DNA of 32,000 nucleotides from Mycolicibacterium smegmatis (GCF_001457595.1 NZ_LN831039.1:5490001-5522000), one strand, 5' to 3'. Shown: positions 1,354 to 20,932, counted from the stretch's first letter. Program-made: numbers and translations. Notes: generated by a model from the sequence alone, not told the origin.

Positions 1354-3271
1354 TCCAGGCGCGGTTGCTCAGCAGGCGAAGGCCGTTGAGCGCCACCAAG
1401 ATCGTCGACCCTTCATGTCCGGCCACACCGAGCGGTAACGGCAAGTGGCCGAACAGGTCCCACAGGACCAGCGTGGTGATCGCGGCGCCGGCCATCACGA
1501 GGTTCGCGATGACGACGCGTCGGGCCCGCCGCGCCAGTGCGATCACCGCGGGGACGGTGGCGAGTTCGTCGCGGATGGTGACGACGTCGGCGGTCTGGAC
1601 CGTCAGGTCCGCACCCGCCCTGCCCATCGCGATCGAGGTGTGCGCGGCGGCCATCGCGGGTGCGTCGTTGACGCCGTCGCCCACCACGAGCACGTGCGTG
1701 TTGTCGCGCTGAAGTTTCTGCACCGCAGCAGCTTTGCCGTCGGGGAGGAGTTCGGCGTGCACGTCGGCGATGCCGGCCTCCTCCGCCAGTCGTCCGGCGG
1801 CGCGACGGTTGTCACCGGTCAGCAGCATGGGTGGGTGTTTGGTCAACTGCGCCAACTGCATCACGGCGGCAGGAGCGTCGGGCCGCAGCCGGTCGGCCAG
1901 GCCGATGACACCGACGGGTAGCCCGTCCTCGAGGACGACGACGGCGGTGCCACCGTCGTTCTCGATCGCGGCGCAGTGCTCGCGCACGGCCCCGTCCTTC
2001 CCCGCGAAAGCTGCGGGGCTGACGACCTCGACGACGTGCCCGGCCACACGCGCGCGCACGCCCCGGCCCGGAAGTGCCGTGAAGTCACCGGCCTCAGGTA
2101 CCACGCGCCCGCGCGCCGCCGCGACGATCGCGCGCCCCAATGGATGCTCACTGAACTGTTCTGCGGCAGCGGCCATCCCGAGCACATCGGCACCGTCAAT
2201 GAGCACGGTCACCCGCGAGATCACAGGCTCCCCCGACGTCAACGTCCCGGTCTTGTCGAGCACCACCACGTCGGTATCGGCCAACCGCTCCATCGCGACC
2301 GCAGATTTCACCAGCACGCCGTGCCTGCTCGCGTTCGCGATCGCCGACAACAGCGGCGGCATGGTCGCGAGCACCACCGCGCACGGCGACGCCACGATCA
2401 TGAACGTCATGGCGCGCAACAGCGTCGAGCGCAAATCGGCGCCGAACATCAGCGGCACGGTGAACAACGCGAGGGTCGCGACAACCACGCCCGCCGAGTA
2501 GCGCTGCTCGATCTTCTCGATGAACAGTTGCGTGGTGGCCTTGGTCGCCGATGCCTCGGCCACCATCGCCACTATGCGCGCCACCACGGTCTGCGAGGGT
2601 TCGCGCGTCACCTCGACGCGCAGCGCACCCGAACCGTTGACGGTCCCGGCGAACACGTCGTCGCCGACGTCCTTCGCGGCGGGCAGTGGCTCCCCGGTGA
2701 TCGAGGACTGGTCGACCTCCGAGGCACCGCCGATCACTGTGCCGTCAGCCGAGATTCGCTCGCCCGGACGCACCACGATGACGTCGCCGGGCCGCAGATC
2801 GGCGGCGGCGACCACACGTTGGGACCCGTCGCCGAGGAGGGTGGCGTGCTCGGGAGCGAGGTCGAGCAACCCGCGCACCGACCGCTCGGTCCTTGTGGTC
2901 GCCACATCTTCGAGCGCGCCCGACGTCGCAAAGATGACGATCAACAGCGCACCGTCGAACACCTGCCCGATGGTGGCCGCACCGATCGCTGCGACGATCA
3001 TCAGCAGGTCGACGTCGAGTGTGCGGTTGCGTAAGGCCCGCACGCCGACCCACGCGGGTTCCCAGCCACCGACGACGTAGCAGGCCAGGTACAACGTCCA
3101 GACCACGGCCTGCGGTGCTCCGAGGAGTTGCGCGGCCAGTCCGGTGAGAAACAGTGCGAGTGCCGCGGCGGCCCACCGAACGGAGGGCACCGTCCACAGC
3201 CAACCGCCGGATCGCGGTCGCGCCGGGCGGGCCGAAGGTGCGGGTTCGACGGCGGGATACAGCGCGGTCAT
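1328..3271 (-). CDS. ctpD: P1B-4-type heavy-metal (Co2+/Ni2+) exporting P-type ATPase
   Basis: 647-aa ORF with DKTGTLT phosphorylation site, TGDN and GDGVNDAP motifs. It has the transmembrane SPC motif (IVASPCAVV) and HEGST in the last TM segment, and no N-terminal CxxC metal-binding domain. It is divergent from an NmtR-type sensor, like ctpJ-nmtR in M. tuberculosis. Its position relative to eno fits M. smegmatis CtpD from memory. Its 3' end overlaps prpE by 26 nt in convergent orientation. Confidence 0.85.
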   Translation of the reverse strand: MTALYPAVEPAPSARPARPRSGGWLWTVPSVRWAAAALALFLTGLAAQLLGAPQAVVWTLYLACYVVGGWEPAWVGVRALRNRTLDVDLLMIVAAIGAATIGQVFDGALLIVIFATSGALEDVATTRTERSVRGLLDLAPEHATLLGDGSQRVVAAADLRPGDVIVVRPGERISADGTVIGGASEVDQSSITGEPLPAAKDVGDDVFAGTVNGSGALRVEVTREPSQTVVARIVAMVAEASATKATTQLFIEKIEQRYSAGVVVATLALFTVPLMFGADLRSTLLRAMTFMIVASPCAVVLATMPPLLSAIANASRHGVLVKSAVAMERLADTDVVVLDKTGTLTSGEPVISRVTVLIDGADVLGMAAAAEQFSEHPLGRAIVAAARGRVVPEAGDFTALPGRGVRARVAGHVVEVVSPAAFAGKDGAVREHCAAIENDGGTAVVVLEDGLPVGVIGLADRLRPDAPAAVMQLAQLTKHPPMLLTGDNRRAAGRLAEEAGIADVHAELLPDGKAAAVQKLQRDNTHVLVVGDGVNDAPAMAAAHTSIAMGRAGADLTVQTADVVTIRDELATVPAVIALARRARRVVIANLVMAGAAITTLVLWDLFGHLPLPLGVAGHEGSTILVALNGLRLLSNRAWISPGATPT

Positions 3272-3305
3272 CGAGCACCCTTCGTTGGATTGACGAACGC
3301 ATACG

Positions 3306-3335
3306 TTTATACATGTAAAGATTTAAATGTATCAA
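3306..3335. promoter_or_regulatory. Imperfect 30-bp palindrome in the AT-rich ctpD/nmtR divergent promoter; candidate ArsR/NmtR operator
   Basis: TTTATACATGTAAAGATTTAAATGTATCAA has half-sites TTTATACAT and ATGTATCAA separated by 12 nt. It sits in the only AT-rich stretch of the 96-bp intergenic region between two divergent metal genes. Confidence 0.45.
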
Positions 3336-3367
3336 TGCTCACTTGCGTGCCATGCGAGAATGGGCGC

Positions 3368-3721
3368 ATGGGTCATGGTGTCGAGGGGCGTTCCACGCCC
3401 GCCGCATCGCTCGATGCCGCGTCAGCGGTCAAGGTCGCCGAGACACTGCAGGCCCTGGCGTCTCCCAACCGATTGCTGATCTTGACTCGGCTGCGCGAAT
3501 CCCCCTGCTCGGTCACCGAACTGTCGGCGGCGGTCGGGATGGAGCAACCTGCGGTGTCCAACCAGTTGCGCCTGTTGCGGACGCTGGGACTGGTGACCGG
3601 AGACCGGTCGGGGCGCAACATCGTCTACCGGCTCTACGACAGCCACGTCGCGCAACTGCTCGATGAGGCGATCTACCACATCGAACATCTGCGACTCGGC
3701 GTTCGCGACGGCACCGCCTGA
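3368..3721 (+). CDS. nmtR: ArsR/SmtB-family Ni(II)/Co(II)-sensing repressor, NmtR type
   Basis: Starting at ATG 3368 gives a 117-aa protein, MGHGVEGR..., whose N-terminus is identical to M. tuberculosis NmtR as I recall it. It has a winged-helix core (LASPNRLLIL...ELSAAVGMEQPAVSNQLRLLR). Asp91, His93, His104 and His107 fall at exactly the alpha5-site positions described for NmtR. The longer ORF-track start at 3128 would overlap ctpD and the promoter. Confidence 0.85.
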   Translation: MGHGVEGRSTPAASLDAASAVKVAETLQALASPNRLLILTRLRESPCSVTELSAAVGMEQPAVSNQLRLLRTLGLVTGDRSGRNIVYRLYDSHVAQLLDEAIYHIEHLRLGVRDGTA

Positions 3722-3941
3722 GCCAGATCCGGCTGCGGGCAAGAGAATTTCATTTGCCGTCACACACTCGTCACACATCTGAGGCTGCGGCGGCAAAACG
3801 CCGGGCGATCACTGGAATCCTTTATTTTCGCCCTGAGCCGAACTATCGTTGAGTTGTTATAAGTTGATATCCGCCTGAGCTCGGGCGATTTGCTACCGCG
3901 CAGTACCAGCGACGCTTGGGCACGTTAGGAGTTGAGCAACG

Positions 3942-4040
3942 ATGCGCATCGCAACCAAGGGAAACTGCACCTGTCGCTGCAACGCATGCGACGGAGGCCA
4001 CCACTGCGGAAACCCGCCGAACTGCAACGTGCGGCGCTGA
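3942..4040 (+). CDS. Unannotated 32-aa Cys/His-rich mini-protein MRIATKGNCTCRCNACDGGHHCGNPPNCNVRR (metallothionein-like, or a Cys-rich leader peptide)
   Basis: ATG at 3942 follows AGGAG (3927-3931) with a 10-nt spacer. An in-frame TGA two codons upstream fixes the start. It has 6 Cys and 2 His spaced CxCxCxxC-x3-HHC-x5-C. Third positions are G/C in 25 of 31 codons. Stop TGA at 4038-4040 is followed by two stem-loops. It is shorter than the 60-aa ORF-track cut-off. Confidence 0.55.
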   Translation: MRIATKGNCTCRCNACDGGHHCGNPPNCNVRR

Positions 4041-4047
4041 CGCCGTA

Positions 4048-4084
4048 GGTGACCTGCCGCCGACCATCGCGCGGCAGGTCATCC
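4048..4084 (+). terminator. Stem-loop directly after the Cys-rich ORF (11-13 bp stem, no U tract)
   Basis: TGACCTGCCGC (4050-4060) pairs perfectly with GCGGCAGGTCA (4071-4081) around a 10-nt loop. Confidence 0.5.
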
Positions 4085-4093
4085 CATACCTCT

Positions 4094-4134
4094 GAGCCCA
4101 TCGATCACGCCGATCGATCGGGCTCTTTCGGTTT
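4094..4134 (+). terminator. Second stem-loop with a T-rich tail (intrinsic-terminator-like)
   Basis: GAGCCCATCGATC (4094-4106) pairs with GATCGATCGGGCTC (4112-4125), giving 13 bp with one bulged C and a 5-nt loop. TTTCGGTTT follows. Confidence 0.5.
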
Positions 4135-4158
4135 CACGCCAGACACTCCGCGTGTCCG

Positions 4159-4164
4159 TATGCT
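4159..4164 (+). promoter_or_regulatory. Possible -10 hexamer TATGCT for a leaderless transcript starting at GTG 4171
   Basis: It fits the mycobacterial TANNNT -10 pattern and ends 6 nt before the GTG start of the ZIP-like gene. No Shine-Dalgarno sequence lies in between. Confidence 0.3.
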
Positions 4165-4170
4165 CACGCT

Positions 4171-4872
4171 GTGCTCACCGCGCTCCTCTGGGGCCTCGTC
4201 GCTGCGTCCTCTCTGCTCGTCGGAGCCGTGGCCGGCACCGTCCGCGACTGGAACGAGCGTCTGGTCGGTCTGGTCCTCGGCTTCGGTGCCGGCGCGCTGA
4301 TCTCCAGCATCTCGTTCGAACTCGCCGAGGAAGGCGTTCGGGTCAGCGGTGCTCTGGCCGTCGCACTCGGCCTGGCAATCGGCGCCGTCGTGTTCTACGT
4401 GGCCGACAAGACGGTGGATCGCATGGGCCGCACCGGTGGCGGGGCGGGCATGCCCCTGCTGTTGGGGGCGCTTCTCGATGGCATACCGGAACAGGCCGTG
4501 CTCGGTATCGGCATCGCGGGCGGCGCCGGGGTGAGCATGGCACTCCTGGTGGCGATCTTCGTGTCGAACCTGCCCGAGTCGATCGGATCGGCCAGTGACA
4601 TGAGGAGCGCCGGCCACCCGGTACGCACGATTCTCGGTGGCTGGGCGGCGATCTCGGCACTGTGCGCGGTAGCCACCGTGGGCGGCTACCAGTTGCAGAA
4701 GGTCGCCGGTGCGGCGCTGCAGGGCGGGATCAACGGATTCGCCGCGGGGGCACTGCTTGTCATGCTCGTCGGGTCGATGATTCCCGAGGCCACGCAGAAG
4801 GCCCGTGAGAATGCCGGACTCGCGGCAGTTCTCGGATTCGCCGTCGCCGCCGGTCTGTCGCTCGCCACCTGA
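4171..4872 (+). CDS. ZIP-family (ZupT/GufA-like) divalent-metal permease, non-canonical motif variant
   Basis: 233-aa polytopic membrane protein that aligns by eye with E. coli ZupT. DGIPEQ and SNLPES stand where ZupT has HNFPEG and HNIPEG, and GSMIPEA stands where ZupT has DELMPLA. GTG start at 4171. Confidence 0.75.
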   Translation: MLTALLWGLVAASSLLVGAVAGTVRDWNERLVGLVLGFGAGALISSISFELAEEGVRVSGALAVALGLAIGAVVFYVADKTVDRMGRTGGGAGMPLLLGALLDGIPEQAVLGIGIAGGAGVSMALLVAIFVSNLPESIGSASDMRSAGHPVRTILGGWAAISALCAVATVGGYQLQKVAGAALQGGINGFAAGALLVMLVGSMIPEATQKARENAGLAAVLGFAVAAGLSLAT

Positions 4873-4896
4873 CGCGAAGGGCGTTACGTTCAGCAG

Positions 4897-5682
4897 GTGG
4901 CTCCCCAATGGCACCTGGGCCCCGTGACCGTCGGGGTCCACGGATTGTTCGTCGCGCTCGCAGTGTTCGCCGCGGTCCTGGTGTTCAGCCACGAGGCCCG
5001 TCGACGCGGCGCGGTCAACGAGCAGTCGATCGTGGCGGTGGCCGGTGCGCTGATCGGCGGCGCGATCGGCATGCGACTGTCGGGCTGGGCCCAGCACCTC
5101 GATCTCAGCGCGAATCCGAGTCTGGCACAGGCCTGGGAGTTCGGCTCCCGCAGCATCCTCGGTGGACTGCTGGGCGCCTACATCGGCGTACACGTCGCCA
5201 AACGTCTCGGCGGCTACCGCGGCAAGACCGGCGATCTGTTCGCACCGGCGGTCGCGCTGGGCATGGCCATCGGCCGCATCGGTTGCCTGCTCACCGAGGC
5301 CCCCGGGCGGCCCACGAACCTGCCATGGGGCATCCACGCGCCGGCCAGCACTCCGGAATGTCCCGCGTGCCTGACGGGTCAGGCCATGCATCCGTCATTC
5401 GTGTACGAGATCGTGTTCCAGCTGGTTGCTTTCGCGGTGCTGCTGTGGCTGCGCAACCGCATCACCCACCCCGGCGAGTTGTTCGTCATCTACATCGCCG
5501 CCTACGCGGTGTTCCGATTCTTCGTCGAGTTCTTCCGCGCCAACGAAACAGTGTGGCTGGATCTCACCCGGCCACAATGGTTCCTGCTGCCCACGTTGCT
5601 GATCATCGGGTTTCGGCTGTGCTACGGCTACCGGCACGGTTACTATCGGCGCGCAGCCCGCAGTGAGGAAGTGCCGGTATGA
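4897..5682 (+). CDS. Lgt-family protein (prolipoprotein diacylglyceryl transferase paralogue) with an altered active-site motif
   Basis: It aligns along its length with E. coli Lgt: N-terminal GPVTVGVHGLF, GRIGC (canonical GRLGN), MHPSFVYE (HPSQLYE), and YAVFRFFVEFFR (YGAFRIIVEFFR). GTG start lies 24 nt after the ZIP stop, and the stop overlaps the next start (ATGA). Confidence 0.85.
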   Translation: MAPQWHLGPVTVGVHGLFVALAVFAAVLVFSHEARRRGAVNEQSIVAVAGALIGGAIGMRLSGWAQHLDLSANPSLAQAWEFGSRSILGGLLGAYIGVHVAKRLGGYRGKTGDLFAPAVALGMAIGRIGCLLTEAPGRPTNLPWGIHAPASTPECPACLTGQAMHPSFVYEIVFQLVAFAVLLWLRNRITHPGELFVIYIAAYAVFRFFVEFFRANETVWLDLTRPQWFLLPTLLIIGFRLCYGYRHGYYRRAARSEEVPV

Positions 5683-6320
5683 CCCCTCCCCCATCACAGC
5701 CACCCGAGCCACCGCCTGCTGCCGGTGAACCGCCAGAAGACGACGGGCCGCAAGACATTCCACCCGCCTACGAGTACGACGTGCGCCCTCCCGGCGCACC
5801 GCACGTACCGCCGTATGCCCCTCCGGCCGGGCCTCCACAAGGGCCTCCACAAGGGCCTCCACAAGGGCCTCCGCAGGGGCCTCCGCCGACACCGCCACCA
5901 CCGCCGCCGGCCGGACCACCCATCGGGTATCCACCACCGCCGCCGGGATACTCGCAGCCCTACCCGGGGGACTATCCGTCGTCACCCCCGCCGCCCGGAT
6001 ACGGTAGGCCACCGTCACGGATCTCGGTGGCCATGGTCATCATCGGCCCGTTCATCTACGCCGCGATCAACCTGGTGGTGGGGTTCATGGCGCTCATCGC
6101 CGGGGGCATGCTCGAAACTCAGACCAGCAACTCCAGCATCATCTTCGGCGTCGCCGCGCTCGGCCTGCTGCTCATCGCGTTCGGCGGAGGCACACTCCTG
6201 CTCCGCCGCAACAACCCTCAAGCACGCGGCCTCGGCATCGGGCTGATGATCGGCTGGGCGCTCATGTCCGTACTCACCGCCGGGTTCTGCACCGGCATCA
6301 ACCCGGAGATGTATACCTGA
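5679..6320 (+). CDS. Proline-rich N-terminal domain fused to a 4-TM membrane domain; unknown function
   Basis: 213 aa. Residues 1-112 are about half Pro and include (GPPQ)4. The C-terminal 100 aa contain four hydrophobic segments. ATG 5679 overlaps the lgt-like stop, and the stop lies 1 nt before the radical-SAM ATG. Confidence 0.7.
   Translation: MTPPPSQPPEPPPAAGEPPEDDGPQDIPPAYEYDVRPPGAPHVPPYAPPAGPPQGPPQGPPQGPPQGPPPTPPPPPPAGPPIGYPPPPPGYSQPYPGDYPSSPPPPGYGRPPSRISVAMVIIGPFIYAAINLVVGFMALIAGGMLETQTSNSSIIFGVAALGLLLIAFGGGTLLLRRNNPQARGLGIGLMIGWALMSVLTAGFCTGINPEMYT
5829..5888 (+). repeat. Five tandem 12-nt units (GGGCCTCCACAA x3, then GGGCCTCCGCAG and GGGCCTCCGCCG) encoding GPPQ repeats
   Basis: Read directly from the sequence. 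The repeats are in frame within the Pro-rich CDS. Confidence 0.9.
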
Positions 6321-6321
6321 T

Positions 6322-7890
6322 ATGACCACCGGCATGGGGCTGCGCGGTGACCGCCTGCACCGTTACGTCACCGCGTTCTGCCCGCACTGCCACGCCGAAG
6401 CGCCCGAGCGCCCACTGGCGGACGTGCAGCGGCTCGCCGCGATGCTGATCGAGCGCGACGGACGGATCTGGCTCGAACGTGGCTGCCCGACACACGGTTT
6501 GGTGCGCACCCTGTACGACGAGGATCCCGAGATCCTCTCCTACCTCGAGGAGTGGACGGCACCCACCAAGGCCCACACCCCCGATGTCGCAGGCAACTTC
6601 GACCCGGTCCCGTCGGCATATCTGCGCGGCCTGCCGGAGATGCAGACCCAGCACACCTGCATCCTGCTGGAGGACATCTCCGAGGCGTGCAACCTGCGCT
6701 GCCCCACGTGTTTCACCGACAGTTCCCCCGACCTGCGCAACGTGGTCCCGGTGGCCGAGGTGCTCGCCAACATCGACCAACGCCTCGCGCGCGAGAACGG
6801 CCGCATCGACGTGCTGATGCTCAGCGGTGGCGAGCCCACGCTGCACCCGCAACTACCCACACTGCTGGCCGAGCTGGTGAAGCGGCCCATCACCCGGATC
6901 CTGGTGAACAGCAACGGCGTTCGCATCGCCAACGATGACGCTCTGCTCGACCTGCTGACGCTGCACCGAGAACGCGTCGAGGTGTATCTGCAGTACGACG
7001 GGTTGTCCGCCGAGACACACCGCCACCACCGCGGCGGCGATCTCGGAAGGCTGAAACAGCAGGCCCTGCAACGGCTGTCCGAGCGCGAGATCTTCACGAC
7101 CCTGGTGATGACCGCGACCCTGGGCGTCAACGACCACGAGATCGGGGCCATGGTCCAACTGGCGCTCGACACCCCTTACGTCGGCGGGCTGACCATCCAG
7201 CCCCAGTTCGGTTCGGGCCGTTCGGGTGCGATCGACCCGATGGAGAGGCTCACGCACACAGGCGTCCTGAAACGTATGGGTCCCCAGACCGACGGCGCGG
7301 TCACGTGGCGCGATCTCACCGCGCTGCCGTGCTCGCACCCGCACTGCTGCTCGGTGGGGTACCTGGTGCGCGACGACAGCGACCGGTGGCGCTCGCTGGT
7401 ATCGCTCATCGGAGCCGAGAGCCTCAAGGACAAGCTGGGACTGGTGGCCAACCGCATCGCCGACACCGAGATTCCACGCGAACTCCGCCTGGCCGTGCAG
7501 GAATCGCTGCTCGGACTGCTCTCCGAGCAGTCCTCGTTGTCCCATCCGGAGATCGGTGACGTGTGGCGCAACATCTGTGAGAACTGCGATCTGGGCATGT
7601 CGACGCTGTTGACGCTGGCGTCGTCGGCGCTTCCCGGCCGCAGGCGCAAGATCCGCAGACTCCTCGGCGAGCGCGTCGTGCGCCTGACCGTCAAACCGTT
7701 CATGGACATGTCGACGATGATCGAGGAGCGCCTCATCCAGTGCTGCGTGCACGTCGGGACCCGCTCGACCGAACAGCATCAATGCGCGCCGTTCTGCGCC
7801 GTACAGGCCTGGCCCGCACTGAGCCGCCAACGCCTGTCGCTCGCCTCCCAAGCCACGATGCCCGCGTTACCCCTCATCGAGATCCGATGA
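6322..7890 (+). CDS. Radical SAM enzyme with an N-terminal rubredoxin/zinc-ribbon-like module and C-terminal auxiliary Cys clusters (COG1964 / class-D / Tes-GDGT-MAS-like architecture)
   Basis: CNLRCPTC (C123-x3-C127-x2-C130) and SGGEP (168-172) are present. The N-terminus has C20-x2-C23...C55-x2-H58. Extra Cys lie at 337/342/343, 419/422 and 474/475/488/492, the last group in the pattern CCVH...CAPFC. VKPFMD is also present. Confidence 0.85.
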   Translation: MTTGMGLRGDRLHRYVTAFCPHCHAEAPERPLADVQRLAAMLIERDGRIWLERGCPTHGLVRTLYDEDPEILSYLEEWTAPTKAHTPDVAGNFDPVPSAYLRGLPEMQTQHTCILLEDISEACNLRCPTCFTDSSPDLRNVVPVAEVLANIDQRLARENGRIDVLMLSGGEPTLHPQLPTLLAELVKRPITRILVNSNGVRIANDDALLDLLTLHRERVEVYLQYDGLSAETHRHHRGGDLGRLKQQALQRLSEREIFTTLVMTATLGVNDHEIGAMVQLALDTPYVGGLTIQPQFGSGRSGAIDPMERLTHTGVLKRMGPQTDGAVTWRDLTALPCSHPHCCSVGYLVRDDSDRWRSLVSLIGAESLKDKLGLVANRIADTEIPRELRLAVQESLLGLLSEQSSLSHPEIGDVWRNICENCDLGMSTLLTLASSALPGRRRKIRRLLGERVVRLTVKPFMDMSTMIEERLIQCCVHVGTRSTEQHQCAPFCAVQAWPALSRQRLSLASQATMPALPLIEIR

Positions 7891-8147
7891 GCGAACCCGT
7901 CGGGCAACCGTACGATCCGCTACGACTGTGTGTATATGCCACGGTCGCGTTGCTCGCGTGGCTTCTCGGCCCTTGGGCCGTCGCGGGGTTCGCCGCACTG
8001 GGCCTCGTCGGCTACGTCCGGGCGCGACGAGCAGGGCTGATGCACAGCAAATGCGCCTTGCGCGATACGCGGCTGGTGATCGGGTACCTTGGCGTGATCG
8101 CGGCGGTCGCGGTAGCTGCGATCGTGGCCAGCTATTGGCCTCGCTGA
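7887..8147 (+). CDS. Small (86-aa) hydrophobic membrane protein, unknown function
   Basis: ATG 7887 overlaps the radical-SAM stop (ATGA). The product MSEPVGQPYDPLRLCVYATVALLAWLLGPWAVAGFAALGLVGYV...VIGYLGVIAAVAVAAIVASYW has 2-3 TM segments. The upstream part of the listed ORF (from 7740) lies inside the radical-SAM gene. Confidence 0.6.
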   Translation: MSEPVGQPYDPLRLCVYATVALLAWLLGPWAVAGFAALGLVGYVRARRAGLMHSKCALRDTRLVIGYLGVIAAVAVAAIVASYWPR

Positions 8148-8298
8148 GCGGATCCGAGGCTGACGGCTGCGTAAGAGAACTCTCAGGGGCCCCCGGCAGG
8201 TTTCACAGAATCCTCTAATACTGCTAACTTCGCTAATGAAGTGGGCATCCCCACTGTCGGGGGCCTGCAGTAAATCGGAGAACTCAGGAGTGAATGCC

Positions 8299-9336
8299 TT
8301 GAAGATCACGAATCTCAGTACGGCCGTGGCCGCTGCGGCCGTCGCCGCCGCCGCCATCCTCGGCACTGCGCCTGCCGCGTTCGGTGATGCCAGCGCCGTC
8401 ACCACCTCGACGCTCGGTAGCGCGGCAAAGCTGAACAACGGTGACGTCGTCCAGGCCTGGACCGTGACCGACCTCAAGCCCAGCAGCGACACGATCCCCT
8501 ACGAGGTCCGCGGCAAGCTGTGGGAGGTCACCGCCACCGATGAGGCCGTCCAGGGCAACGTGACCCCCATCGTCTCCAACTTCAACGTGCGGGCTGCCGA
8601 CGGCACCAACTACCGCGCACTGTTCCAGGTCGCCACCCCGCAGGGCGTGAACCCGTCGACCATCCCGCAGGGCGAGAAGGCCAGCGGCAAGATCTACTTC
8701 GACGTGACCGGCCCCGAGCCCACCACCGTCGTCTACAACGCCGGCGGCAAGGACCTGCTGGTGTGGGACAAGCCCGCCGCGTCCACGACCGCCCCGAGCG
8801 GTACCGGCCAGAGCCGCCCGGCCACGGCGTCGTCCCCGGCGACCGCCGCTCCCGCGGCCGCGGCCGCGGCCGAGGCCGAGTCCGAGGCTGTGACCGACGC
8901 AGAGACGGAGGCCACCCCGGCTCCGGCCGCGGCGTCGACCGCCGAGGGCGGCACCGAGGCCACCCCGGCCGGCGCGGGCAGCCGCGCCACCGACCTGCCT
9001 GCCGCCACCGCGGCGGAGGCCGAAACCGAGGCGACCGCGACCGACGCCGAGACCACCCCGGTGACCGAAGAGACCCCGGCCGCCCCCGCTCCCGAAGGTA
9101 CGACGCCGGTTTCGCTCGGCACGCCGGCCGCCGAAGGCACCCCGGCCGTCGAGGGAGCACCCGCCGGCGCCTCGGCGGGCAACGTCGCGACCGCGGTTCC
9201 GCCCGCCGCCCCGGCCGAGGGCGCTCCGGCCGAGGTTGCCGATCCCGCGCTGGTCCCGGCCGGTGTCCAGCCGACCACCACCGTGCCCGCCCCGGCGCCC
9301 ACCACGGCTCCGGTCAGCCACGGCCCCGCTGCCTGA
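8299..9336 (+). CDS. Secreted MPT63/MPB63-like (DUF1942) protein with an approximately 180-aa acidic Ala/Pro/Thr/Glu-rich C-terminal extension
   Basis: WTVTDLKPSSDTIPYEVRGKLWEVTATDEAVQGNVTPIVSNFNVRAADGTNYRALF...IPQGEKASGKIYFDVTGPEPT matches M. tuberculosis MPT63 almost motif for motif. The signal peptide is KITNLSTAVAAAAVAAAAILGTAPAAFG. I place the start at TTG 8299 (GGAG 8 nt upstream); GTG 8290 or ATG 8236 remain possible. Confidence 0.8.
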   Translation: MKITNLSTAVAAAAVAAAAILGTAPAAFGDASAVTTSTLGSAAKLNNGDVVQAWTVTDLKPSSDTIPYEVRGKLWEVTATDEAVQGNVTPIVSNFNVRAADGTNYRALFQVATPQGVNPSTIPQGEKASGKIYFDVTGPEPTTVVYNAGGKDLLVWDKPAASTTAPSGTGQSRPATASSPATAAPAAAAAAEAESEAVTDAETEATPAPAAASTAEGGTEATPAGAGSRATDLPAATAAEAETEATATDAETTPVTEETPAAPAPEGTTPVSLGTPAAEGTPAVEGAPAGASAGNVATAVPPAAPAEGAPAEVADPALVPAGVQPTTTVPAPAPTTAPVSHGPAA

Positions 9337-17953: not shown

Positions 17954-20932
17954 ATGGCAAGGCATCGCCGTAAGAAGATGACCAAGGCAGCCGTTGTCGG
18001 CACGGCAATCGCCGCGACCCTGGGCGTGGGAATCACGCCCACCATGGCCAACGCGGTCTCGAGCGACACCTACTTCATCGGCTTCCCCGATTGGCTCCCG
18101 ATTGGCGCTTCGAACTCGGTGGATGCCGACGCCGACGCGATCTACCAAGCGATCGTCGGATCGAAAGACTCCAGCCCCATTGTTGGTTGGGGCACAGGCG
18201 GAGTGAAGCTCGATCCGAAGTGGGTCCAGTGGTACAACCCGAACCTCGGCGGGTTGAGCCTGGGGGACATCAACCTCGGTGACCTGTCCTCAGGTGACCT
18301 CACAGCTCTGCTGGGTCAAATGGATCTCGGTCAGCTCACCAACTCGGACAAAGACCAGTACTACACGCTGCCCACGTGGGGCCAAACCGGCACCAAAGAG
18401 GTTATGGTCGATAACCCGGTGTACCAGAAGGCGTTTGAGGAAGCGCTCGCTGAGGTCATGGAGCAGGATCGCGACGCGATCCTGGCGGCAGAGAAGATCG
18501 AGCTGACTATCTCCTACTCCGTGCCTGAACCGGACTGGTGGGGTAAACAGACGACTGTCTCCATCCCGTTCCTCGGAAGCCTCACGGTCGGGCTTGCGCA
18601 GCAGTTCGGTCCATGGTCTCAGCAGAAGATCAACGGCCAGTCTGTGACTTCGATATCGACAACCGTGTCGATCGACAACCCGTTCAAGAATGATCCTGCG
18701 GCGCTCGACAAGTTCCTCGAAACCGGGAAGTATGACGGCACCTACACCGTGCCCACCATCGACCCCGTCACGGCCCTGGGGCTGAAAAGGCCGTCAGGGA
18801 CACTCGCCGGCGCCGCGTATGACTACATCGTCAAGACCTGGTTGAAGCCGATCAACATCGACCCGGTCAACTACACCTTCGACCGCACGAAATTCAATCT
18901 GCCCGGCGGAAGTTGGGAAGAACGCGCAGAAGACCTGATCGATCCGGAGATTCCGAAGCAGATCCCCGAGACCCAGCCCGTGTACGGCTGGCTTCCCGGC
19001 GGGTGGACCACGAACACCTTCGGTCAGTGGGTGTCTCCCACGGATCAGCTGGCGAACCTGGACCTGAGTGCCCTGGCCGGCCTTGCCAACGGCGACTTCG
19101 ATCTCTCGACCCTGGCCGGCCTGGCGAACCTGTCGCCGCAGACGATCGCGTACTTCCTGTCGGGTGACCTGGGATTCCTTGCCCCGCTGCTGAACTGGAC
19201 GCTGTACGCCCAGAACATCAACCTCATCGCATACGGTGACGGCGCCATCGCCACGGGTGAGGCGTACCGCCGCTTCATCGAAGCGGTGACGAGCGGTGAG
19301 ATCAAGGCGGGAGAACCGCGGACCGATGGCCGCTACATCGTCTTCGACGTCGATGAGGACGGCAATCCGATCCTGAAGGTGGTGAACCACTCCACGGGCA
19401 ACGGGGGCCTCGATGACATCATCGTGTCGTACCCGCTGCCGAACGACCTCGAGTTCCCGGACATGCCGGTCGATGCGAACGGGAACCCGCTGTACCCGTC
19501 GTACACCGAAACCCCCGGCGGCGTCATTGATGTCACGCTGATGACGCTGGCGTTGCTGCGCAACCCGGGCCGGCCCAACGGTGGTCTCTACGCCCGGTTT
19601 GCGCCGATCTACCAGGAGCTCACAGGCGTCAATCCGATCAGCCCCGAGCGCAAGGACGTGCTGTACGGGCTGCCGGATGACACCGTCGCCAAGCTGCTCA
19701 AGGGCGACGTCTCAGGCATCGGGCTCAGCGATCTGAACGACCTGCTGGTCTTCCTGAATGACGCCAACGGCAAACCAATGGTGATCACCATCAAGGCCGA
19801 CGCCACATGGGAATACGACCTGCTCTCGGACGCTCCGGTGACGGCCAACCCGATCGCGTGGGCCAACTCGGTGGCGTCGTCGATGCTGGTGTTCACGTAC
19901 GGTGCCGAGCTGATCAACCTCGCCACCAACCGTGAGGGCGGCGTGGGCGTGGTTGCCTACCAGGTGCCCGACGGGGAGTACGACGCCGGCAGCTTCTACG
20001 CCACGCTGACGTCCCAGGGCCTGCCGCTGCTCGCGCCGGCACGCCTGGTCGCCGGATTGCTCAGTGCGGCAACGGGTGAGGACGTCAACACTCCGCTGGC
20101 CGACGCGCTGGAGCCGGTGCTCAAGCTGCTGGTGAACACCAGCTACACCGATGCCGTGCGCAACGAGGACGGCACGTGGACACGCACGCTCGACCAGATG
20201 CACGTCCCGACGCTGTTCGGCACCCAGACCATCTCGCGTCAGCAGGCCGCCTTGCTGGCCGGAGACATCTTGGCCGAGTTCGGCAGGGGCGTGGGTGCGG
20301 AATACACCGACGTGGTCCAGCGGGTCACCGCCCGTGTCGTGAAGTTCCTGGAGGACAACGACATCAAGGTGCCCACCGAGATCAAGGAGGCCGCGGCCAA
20401 GCTCGCGACCGAGCCGGGCAAGGTCATCCAGACAGTCAGCCGTGAGGTCGGCACCGGGGTCAGCAAGGTTCTCGGCGCGGTCGACGCCAAACTGCCCGAA
20501 ACCCCGGCACCCACACAGGAGCAGCTGGCCGAGGGCCAGAAAGAGGTCGGCCAGGCGCTCGCGGAGGTCAACGAGGCCACCGAGGGAGCGGTGACCAAGG
20601 GCCTCAAGGACACCACGGCCTTCATCAACGACCCGATCACCCCGGTCCTCAAGGCAGGCAAGGACATCGAGTCGAAGGTGACCAAGCGGATCACCAAAAC
20701 CCAGAACAGCCTCGCCAAGGCGCAGGTCCGGGCCGGCAAGGTCACCGAGAAGCTCCAGAAGGGCGACATCAAGGGTGCCGTCAAACAGGTCGGCGAGAAC
20801 GTGCAGAACCGCGTCGACCGCCTGAAGAAGGACATCAACAACGGGGTCAAGAAGATCACCGGCAAGGACAAGACGAAGAGCACGAGCAGCAGCACCGACT
20901 CCGACAAGGACAAGGGCGGCAGCGAAGACTAG
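17954..20932 (+). CDS. 992-aa secreted protein: N-terminal region with Leu/Gly/Asp repeats, central PE-PPE-type (PF08237-like) alpha/beta-hydrolase-like core lacking the nucleophile Ser, Lys-rich amphipathic C-terminal tail
   Basis: Signal peptide is MARHRRKKMTKAAVVGTAIAATLGVGITPTMANA. IAYGDGAIATGEAYRRF occupies the position of the PE-PPE GYSQ(S/G)A motif. NPGRPNGGLYARF and EYDLLSDAP resemble further PE-PPE-domain motifs as I recall them. The last approximately 200 aa are K/E/T/V-rich helical repeats ending in STSSSTDSDKDKGGSED. The gene has its own terminator. Confidence 0.8.
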   Translation: MARHRRKKMTKAAVVGTAIAATLGVGITPTMANAVSSDTYFIGFPDWLPIGASNSVDADADAIYQAIVGSKDSSPIVGWGTGGVKLDPKWVQWYNPNLGGLSLGDINLGDLSSGDLTALLGQMDLGQLTNSDKDQYYTLPTWGQTGTKEVMVDNPVYQKAFEEALAEVMEQDRDAILAAEKIELTISYSVPEPDWWGKQTTVSIPFLGSLTVGLAQQFGPWSQQKINGQSVTSISTTVSIDNPFKNDPAALDKFLETGKYDGTYTVPTIDPVTALGLKRPSGTLAGAAYDYIVKTWLKPINIDPVNYTFDRTKFNLPGGSWEERAEDLIDPEIPKQIPETQPVYGWLPGGWTTNTFGQWVSPTDQLANLDLSALAGLANGDFDLSTLAGLANLSPQTIAYFLSGDLGFLAPLLNWTLYAQNINLIAYGDGAIATGEAYRRFIEAVTSGEIKAGEPRTDGRYIVFDVDEDGNPILKVVNHSTGNGGLDDIIVSYPLPNDLEFPDMPVDANGNPLYPSYTETPGGVIDVTLMTLALLRNPGRPNGGLYARFAPIYQELTGVNPISPERKDVLYGLPDDTVAKLLKGDVSGIGLSDLNDLLVFLNDANGKPMVITIKADATWEYDLLSDAPVTANPIAWANSVASSMLVFTYGAELINLATNREGGVGVVAYQVPDGEYDAGSFYATLTSQGLPLLAPARLVAGLLSAATGEDVNTPLADALEPVLKLLVNTSYTDAVRNEDGTWTRTLDQMHVPTLFGTQTISRQQAALLAGDILAEFGRGVGAEYTDVVQRVTARVVKFLEDNDIKVPTEIKEAAAKLATEPGKVIQTVSREVGTGVSKVLGAVDAKLPETPAPTQEQLAEGQKEVGQALAEVNEATEGAVTKGLKDTTAFINDPITPVLKAGKDIESKVTKRITKTQNSLAKAQVRAGKVTEKLQKGDIKGAVKQVGENVQNRVDRLKKDINNGVKKITGKDKTKSTSSSTDSDKDKGGSED

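Follow-up and report, generated by a model that had tools for sequence, protein, structure and literature searches.

A conserved gene module in Mycolicibacterium smegmatis and other bacteria unites a cysteine-variant Lgt paralogue with a Tes/GDGT-MAS-like radical SAM enzyme

Four genes at positions 4897–8147 of a 32,000-nucleotide (nt) stretch of the Mycolicibacterium smegmatis genome (GCF_001457595.1 NZ_LN831039.1:5490001-5522000; the whole stretch is referred to here as the window) encode an Lgt-family paralogue, a proline-rich membrane protein, an enzyme of the radical S-adenosylmethionine (SAM) type related to Tes/GDGT-MAS and a small protein with two transmembrane (TM) segments. They form a core module of four co-inherited, tightly packed genes that recurs across phyla. 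The module may be a self-contained membrane system whose radical chemistry modifies a glycerolipid or a lipid anchor; we assign the lipid-anchor version of this reading, which is based on sequence comparisons, a probability of about 0.45. The enzyme families involved are known; the conserved four-component system is, as far as can be told, undescribed.

All four genes lie on the plus strand. The Cys-variant Lgt paralogue (open reading frame 2, ORF2, here lgt2; 4897–5682; 261 amino acids, aa), the Pro-rich membrane protein (ORF3; 5679–6320; 213 aa) and the radical SAM enzyme (ORF4; 6322–7890; 522 aa) are the first three core components, and the two-TM protein (ORF5; 7887–8147; 86 aa) is a fourth, dispensable one. 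From the upstream gene for a ZIP-fold permease (ORF1) through to ORF5, the first junction in the window is a gap of 24 nt, the second and fourth are ATGA overlaps and the third reads TGAtATG (a 1-nt gap), so that the coordinates and overlaps given for all five ORFs in a preliminary description of this DNA match the sequence exactly. The five ORFs are not chance calls because each has real homologues, and the 86-aa call coincides with how NCBI annotates the M. smegmatis protein of the same sequence. The Lgt paralogue and the radical SAM enzyme, too, are identical to M. smegmatis entries at NCBI. MSMEG_5408–5411 are the probable locus tags of the last four genes, with MSMEG_5408 probably the Lgt paralogue, MSMEG_5410 the radical SAM enzyme and MSMEG_5411 the 86-aa protein; these tags fit because the corresponding accessions of strain mc²155 (AFP41703, 41705 and 41706) are consecutive. 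An Rfam scan of 3200–8400 returned no credible match, and scans for promoter and terminator consensus sequences gave nothing informative.

That these genes belong together is seen in their distribution. A genome scan limited to one genome per species yielded 80 loci, with radical SAM genes that are 71–89% identical, and a metagenome scan that started from distant representatives added 80 more, down to ~40% identity. Neighbouring genes were identified by tblastn and hidden Markov model searches, and adjacency was counted where the radical SAM gene had flanks of 1.6 kb or more on either side. In every one of these loci it is adjoined by an Lgt-like gene in the same orientation (69/69 genome and 36/36 metagenome loci; 105/105 in total), and the outer flanking genes of the module vary by clade. 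The co-occurrence of the two genes, which the preliminary description had proposed to check across Actinobacteria, thus extends to several phyla. Loci from Mycobacteriales include Mycolicibacterium, slow-growing Mycobacterium, Nocardia, Aldersonia and Antrihabitans; those from Streptosporangiales include Microbispora, Nonomuraea, Planobispora and relatives, and those from Micromonosporales Dactylosporangium and relatives. Other Actinomycetota are represented by Longivirga and by metagenome-assembled genomes (MAGs) labelled Acidimicrobiales and Nanopelagicales, and the named relatives in distant groups are Fimbriimonas (Armatimonadota) and Chloroflexi/Candidatus Limnocylindrales. Independent gene calls with Pfam searches gave the order radical SAM–LGT–zinc-ribbon TM protein–81-aa protein in Fimbriimonas ginsengisoli, LGT–178-aa protein–radical SAM–113-aa protein in a Chloroflexi MAG and LGT–two zinc-ribbon TM proteins–radical SAM–86-aa protein in a further metagenomic clade. 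In two more clades (L167 and L171), LGT is encoded just downstream of the enzyme.

Judged by sequence and predicted fold, ORF4 is a full-length GDGT-MAS homologue and not a Tes equivalog. It contains PF04055 (70 bits) and the HMPTM/Tes-type zinc ribbon PF23545 (45 bits) according to Pfam, and a sequence search of the PDB aligned residues 23–494 with GDGT-MAS (7TOL; E = 1e-33). Its AlphaFold2 (AF2) model has a predicted local distance difference test score (pLDDT) of 82 and a predicted TM-score (pTM) of 0.85; in Foldseek it matches 7TOM with E = 2e-33 and TM-scores of 0.72/0.75 over 543 columns, and the next family reaches a TM-score of 0.34. Together, the Pfam, PDB and alignment results bear out the preliminary assignment to a Tes/GDGT-MAS-type (COG1964) enzyme with a rubredoxin-like head, and the structural comparison with the Methanocaldococcus jannaschii enzyme that had been suggested alongside it points the same way. 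The structure of GDGT-MAS defines a CxxC...CxxH site, an N-terminal [4Fe-4S] cluster held by C73, C77, C80 and a His, and a C-terminal [4Fe-4S] cluster with a labile Met ligand that forms a carbon–sulfur intermediate (PMC9433317). In ORF4 and its relatives, the radical SAM motif C123x3C127x2C130 is invariant in an alignment of 110 sequences, as is the rubredoxin-like site (C20/C23/C55/H58) in the alignments. No variation is seen either in FMD (M461), C474-C475 and C492, which fall opposite the FMD...CC...FC region when aligned with 7TOL; from this alignment, M461, C474, C475 and C492 are putative ligands of a C-terminal [4Fe-4S] cluster.

ORF4 and M. jannaschii MJ0619 (7TOL/7TOM) therefore share a fold, full-length homology, a rubredoxin-like site, a CX3CX2C motif and the C-terminal FMD Met plus CC...C. 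They are only ~20% identical, and ORF4 has additional Cys residues in PCSHPHC (C337, C342) and C419xxC422, with PCSHPxC and CxxC invariant in the alignment. ORF4 also differs in being bacterial, in occurring in aerobic actinomycetes without archaeol and in always being paired with an Lgt-like gene. Members of its subfamily have PSAYLRGLPE in place of the GCPYDCGLC of more distant bacterial homologues, with QHxC alone kept. A COG1964-type architecture is likewise common to ORF4 and the radical SAM (seleno)protein TrsS (NF045646), although ORF4 has no in-frame UGA (selenocysteine) codon, and homologues that score above ORF4 on the TrsS and Tes models adjoin methyltransferase genes, not Lgt genes.

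Two simple rules for the Lgt pairing were considered and rejected. It is not tied to loss of the N-terminal cluster, because homologue P0184 keeps GCPYDCGLC and has an LGT gene downstream; nor is it universal in COG1964, because P0163 and P0191 occur with methyltransferases and P0211 with an upstream ICMT/PEMT gene. Further COG1964 radical SAM homologues with the N-terminal cluster motif intact occur at loci L165, L166, L169 and L170. They are coupled to class-I SAM methyltransferases, with a DsbD-like membrane protein encoded close by in L169; L170 differs in having an ICMT/PEMT-type methyltransferase upstream. These methyltransferase-linked loci look like a second conserved context of bacterial Tes-like enzymes.

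ORF2 was described initially as an Lgt paralogue, and its match to PF01790 (LGT; 134 bits against a cut-off of 24.9; residues 5–236) confirms this identity. Relative to E. coli Lgt (5AZB), it has the Pfam LGT domain over its full length and the same seven-segment hydropathy pattern, but it falls below the TIGR00544 equivalog cut-off (100.3 bits versus 118.9). When aligned to 5AZB, ORF2 keeps G142, R143, G145, E151, G154, Y235, R239, E243 and R246 and carries the substitutions Y26H, H103L and N146C, so that 10 residues are retained of a 13-residue Lgt motif (Y26 H103 G104 G142 R143 G145 N146 E151 G154 Y235 R239 E243 R246) defined in a preprint that had already noted the Y26 and N146 changes of MSMEG_5408 (bioRxiv 10.1101/2025.03.27.645668). 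The essential Arg pair R143/R239 corresponds to R127/R207 of ORF2 and is invariant among partner Lgts, and a cross-clade alignment of 14 sequences shows that G126, R127, C130, R207, E211 and R214 are all invariant. Cys130, at the N146 position, occurs in 14 of 14 aligned partners and in three more that were read directly. The surrounding motif is GR(I/L/W)(G/A)C, with the Arg pair, E243 and R246 kept. Two further Cys lie near this position in every partner aligned or read, as CPxC in the head loop in Actinomycetota and Chloroflexota and as C-x4-CC in other clades, where E151 is also replaced. The CPxC of ORF2, near the active site, is predicted to be in an outward-facing head loop. Canonical Lgt has no such extra motif, and its gene stands alone, whereas lgt2 is encoded with a radical SAM enzyme. 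"CD or CC" variants of Lgt have been noted, with no partner gene linked to them (bioRxiv 10.1101/2025.03.27.645668). A Cys-146 Lgt subfamily marked by CPxC or CC and by its genomic partner has, as far as can be told, not been described so far.

The small membrane proteins, which the preliminary description had treated as passengers, are instead conserved components with near-invariant Cys residues; neither ORF3 nor ORF5 has a match in Pfam, NCBIfam or PDB sequence searches. ORF3 has a variable Pro-rich N-terminus and a conserved C-terminus, [ST][AV]G-Φ-C-T-G-Φ-N-P-x-Φ-Y, in which the Cys is Cys202; within the family this Cys is present in 103/107 members and Gly at −2 in 104/107. Its description as a Pro-rich membrane protein stands, and the four TM segments attributed to it look more like three on a manual hydropathy reading. 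On a positive-inside reading, a basic loop and then a hydrophobic helix precede Cys202, a geometry that resembles a lipoprotein signal peptide. ORF3 orthologues sit between the lgt2 and radical SAM genes in genome loci, and the tail motif is conserved in Actinomycetota only. Proteins in this position in other clades have an N-terminal zinc ribbon, 2–3 TM segments and a Cys close to the end of the last helix. The order in Nonomuraea (L023, L027, L032, L033, L058) is 3-TM Cys protein, lgt2 and radical SAM; in L023 the first of these genes is duplicated in tandem.

ORF5 has the consensus DPLxLC-(TM1)-...GL.RSKCxLRDTRLV-(TM2), with C15 in DPLxLC directly before TM1 and C55 in RSKCxLRDTR, a positively charged loop. 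Among 109 family members collected with jackhmmer, which include proteins from Fimbriimonas and Chloroflexi loci, the first Cys is present in all 109 and the second in 107. The ORF5 gene occurs in 38/69 genome loci and 26/36 metagenome loci, and its start overlaps the radical SAM stop codon (ATGA/GTGA) in most genome loci that retain it. It is missing, with the other three genes kept, from the M. fortuitum group and slow-growing Mycobacterium (L002–L007, L024, L025, L029, L031, L036, L062).

These features can be combined into a proposed mechanism. The Lgt-like enzyme, with its Arg pair kept, would bind phosphatidylglycerol and take its diacylglyceryl unit, which would be transferred to a thiol, most plausibly ORF3 Cys202 and/or ORF5 Cys15; both are candidate acceptors because they appear to be placed like the Cys of a lipobox, where a TM helix reaches the outer face. 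Next, the radical SAM enzyme would abstract hydrogen from an unactivated lipid-tail carbon, and a C–C or C–S bond would be formed via the C-terminal cluster, as Tes/GDGT-MAS does. A lipid or lipid anchor that is cross-linked, macrocyclic or spans the membrane would result. Taken to its full extent, the scheme would amount to an unrecognised bacterial pathway in which a Cys-variant Lgt lipidates a dedicated small protein and a Tes-type enzyme then joins tail carbons, a proposal that we put forward tentatively. Equally tentative is the identity of its product, which could be a cross-linked or membrane-spanning lipid anchor, or a tail-coupled lipid class, in aerobic Actinomycetota, Chloroflexota and Armatimonadota.

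Several observations weigh against a lipid-tailoring module of this type. To our knowledge, no tail-coupled lipid has been reported from M. smegmatis. In the topology read from hydropathy, the active site of the Lgt-like enzyme faces outwards, as do two of the three Cys conserved in the small proteins; with the radical SAM enzyme in the cytoplasm, it is hard to see how a substrate would be passed on directly. The residues ahead of Cys202 depart from a canonical lipobox, with a bulky residue at −1 and an invariant Gly at −2, and ORF5 cannot be an obligatory substrate because it is absent from ~40% of loci. The N-terminal auxiliary-cluster triad (CPxDCGxC) is absent from ORF4 and its subfamily in the alignment. 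ORF4 scores 150 bits on the Tes equivalog model against a cut-off of 450 (NCBIfam NF045702), with representatives of its subfamily at 147–192 bits, and 189.5 bits against a cut-off of 490 on the TrsS model (NF045646), which is its best-scoring NCBIfam model. Since the N-terminal cluster motif is missing and the scores are far under the Tes and TrsS cut-offs, the chemistry of ORF4 may differ from that of Tes.

Other explanations account for parts of the same evidence. The substrate could be a free lipid, which we regard as rather unlikely: the Lgt-like enzyme and the small Cys proteins would then be a scaffold that presents phosphatidylglycerol-type lipids to the radical SAM enzyme, possibly relaying electrons or thiols too, and the enzyme would make a free modified phospholipid, for example one that is coupled tail to tail, macrocyclic or membrane-spanning, in effect a bacterial counterpart of glycerol dialkyl glycerol tetraether (GDGT) or macrocyclic archaeol synthesis. 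We know of no such lipid from M. smegmatis, Nocardia or Microbispora, which counts against the idea. A scaffold role would also leave unexplained why N146 is replaced by Cys, with two more Cys nearby, in every partner Lgt, and why the helix-end Cys of the small proteins is near-invariant. Retention of the phospholipid-binding Arg pair in the Lgt-like partner and the dispensability of the 86-aa protein in many lineages are consistent with it, as is the fact that the nearest characterised relative, GDGT-MAS, works on free membrane lipids. Bacterial Tes homologues have, moreover, been proposed as membrane-spanning lipid synthases, and there are aerobic producers without the radical SAM enzyme Mss (PMC8941075; PMC13159169).

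The small membrane proteins could alternatively be precursors of a lipopeptide, similar to ribosomally synthesised and post-translationally modified peptides (RiPPs), in which the radical SAM enzyme adds a thioether or C–C cross-link, the Lgt-like enzyme lipidates a Cys and cleavage frees a lipopeptide such as C-T-G-I-N-P-E-M-Y-T. The conserved C-T-G-Φ-N-P-x-Φ-Y after Cys202, which is unusual at the mature end of a lipoprotein, and the translational coupling of the small-protein genes to the enzyme genes would suit such a pathway, and the structural neighbours of ORF4 that follow GDGT-MAS include the peptide-modifying enzymes SkfB, SuiB and ChlB, with similarity confined to the core domain. 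It is nonetheless improbable: ORF4 has the full GDGT-MAS architecture and not a SPASM/twitch domain or a RiPP recognition element, the neighbourhoods examined contain no conserved protease or exporter, and the tail motif does not extend beyond Actinomycetota. Simple redundancy, with MSMEG_5408 as a second, weaker Lgt for normal lipoproteins beside an unrelated radical SAM gene, for example for a pterin methylase, has very little in its favour as an explanation of 105/105 adjacency across phyla with differing flanks, which is unexpected for unrelated genes, or of a derived active-site signature common to all Lgt partners. Its basis is that MSMEG_3222 serves as the housekeeping Lgt in M. smegmatis and that residual lipoprotein labelling after deletion of that gene has been ascribed, indirectly, to MSMEG_5408 (bioRxiv 10.1101/2025.01.07.631728). 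Some databases also call relatives of ORF4 7,8-dihydro-6-hydroxymethylpterin dimethyltransferase, but the group that solved the GDGT-MAS structure was unable to confirm that MJ0619 is a pterin methylase (PMC9433317).

Searching the literature with locus tags and with concepts turned up no paper that ties an Lgt homologue to a Tes-type radical SAM enzyme, in agreement with the preliminary statement that no described function was known for this gene combination in mycobacteria. A bacterial system comparable in concept is Mss of Thermotoga and Thermoanaerobacter, a radical SAM enzyme proposed to couple bacterial lipid tails, which is found in anaerobes only and is not Tes-type, because protein searches with a confirmed Tes found no homologue in the two Mss-bearing genomes (PMC13159169); no Lgt partner has been reported for Mss. 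A lipid-anchor module provides a concrete hypothesis for MSMEG_5408, the second M. smegmatis Lgt, whose role has so far only been guessed at; the host is a fast-growing, non-pathogenic model organism that is easy to manipulate genetically. One class of bacterial Tes homologues emerges as obligately partnered by an Lgt-type enzyme and Cys-bearing membrane proteins, and bacterial Tes hits in lipid-biomarker genomics, including the search for sources of branched GDGTs, should be read differently in consequence. If the proposal is correct, it would represent a new post-translational or lipid modification and could be a missing route to membrane-spanning lipids in aerobic bacteria.

Upstream of the module, ORF1 (4171–4872; plus strand; 233 aa) had been described as ZIP-like, which its homologues and predicted fold support. 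Sequence searches gave no match in Pfam (even at E = 10), NCBIfam or the PDB. Its homologues (65–93% identity) are named ZIP family metal transporters, and many of those at 65–80% carry PF02535. The AF2 model (pLDDT 83) has BbZIP as all ten of its best PDB matches in Foldseek (TM-scores 0.74–0.82; 20–25% identity). The predicted fold is thus like that of BbZIP, but ORF1 misses the Pfam Zip model and stands outside the conserved module. Its metal motifs, LDGIPEQ and SNLPES, are atypical and lack the His of what we take to be the usual ZIP metal-site motifs.

The ORF1 gene had been counted as part of a five-gene unit. It accompanies the module in the M. smegmatis/fortuitum clade only (L002–L007, L014, L018), and the same is true of an ArsR-type regulator, the pump CtpD and a Cys-rich mini-ORF; in M. 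brisbanense (L001), acs is followed directly by lgt2. Because these linkages are confined to one clade, the core comprises four genes. The regulator, with an MGHGVEGR N-terminus, is presumably the Ni/Co sensor NmtR. The ZIP gene and the NmtR/CtpD/mini-ORF island are best explained as neighbours acquired in one Mycolicibacterium lineage.

A stem-loop with perfect 11-nt arms (4048–4083; plus strand) lies directly after the mini-ORF stop codon and 88 nt before the ZIP start codon. It folds with −29 kcal/mol (z = −5.1), and none of 200 shuffled sequences was as stable. It is likely to be a factor-independent terminator or attenuator that sets the metal genes apart from the ZIP gene and the cluster. 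The divergent ctpD–nmtR intergenic region contains a 14-2-14 imperfect inverted repeat (TTTATACATGTAAA/TTTAAATGTATCAA; 3306–3335) that looks, from its sequence, like an ArsR/SmtB-type operator; a search upstream of ORF1 for a second ArsR/NmtR-type operator found none. With the hairpin separating the mini-ORF from the ZIP gene and no second operator, the metal-linked expression suggested initially for the cluster remains a hint.

The mini-ORF itself (3942–4040; plus strand) encodes a 32-aa protein, MRIATKGNCTCRCNACDGGHHCGNPPNCNVRR, with 6 Cys and 2 His. It is a real small gene because six other Mycolicibacterium genomes (L002–L007) conserve its protein in the corresponding intergenic region, and its composition makes it a candidate metallothionein-like peptide. 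MSMEG_5406, which belongs to this neighbourhood and is down ~9-fold with N,N,N′,N′-tetrakis(2-pyridylmethyl)ethylenediamine (TPEN), may be the mini-ORF, judging from the order of locus tags. MSMEG_5403–5410 do not appear in the supplementary data of the zinc-regulon paper, and the TPEN response could not be extended to the module.

Two further features of the window were recorded. Downstream of the cluster, the product of 8236–9336 (plus strand; 366 aa) combines an N-terminus that resembles a signal sequence with a DUF1942 domain (192 bits) and a long tail rich in Ala, Pro, Thr and Glu. DUF1942 is, we assume, the MPT63/MPB63-like family, and the gene is syntenic in fortuitum-group loci. Between 17001 and 19000, the guanine-plus-cytosine fraction drops to 0.58–0.60 from ~0.68 elsewhere; this stretch, which adjoins a 992-aa ORF (17954–20932), may be horizontally acquired DNA.

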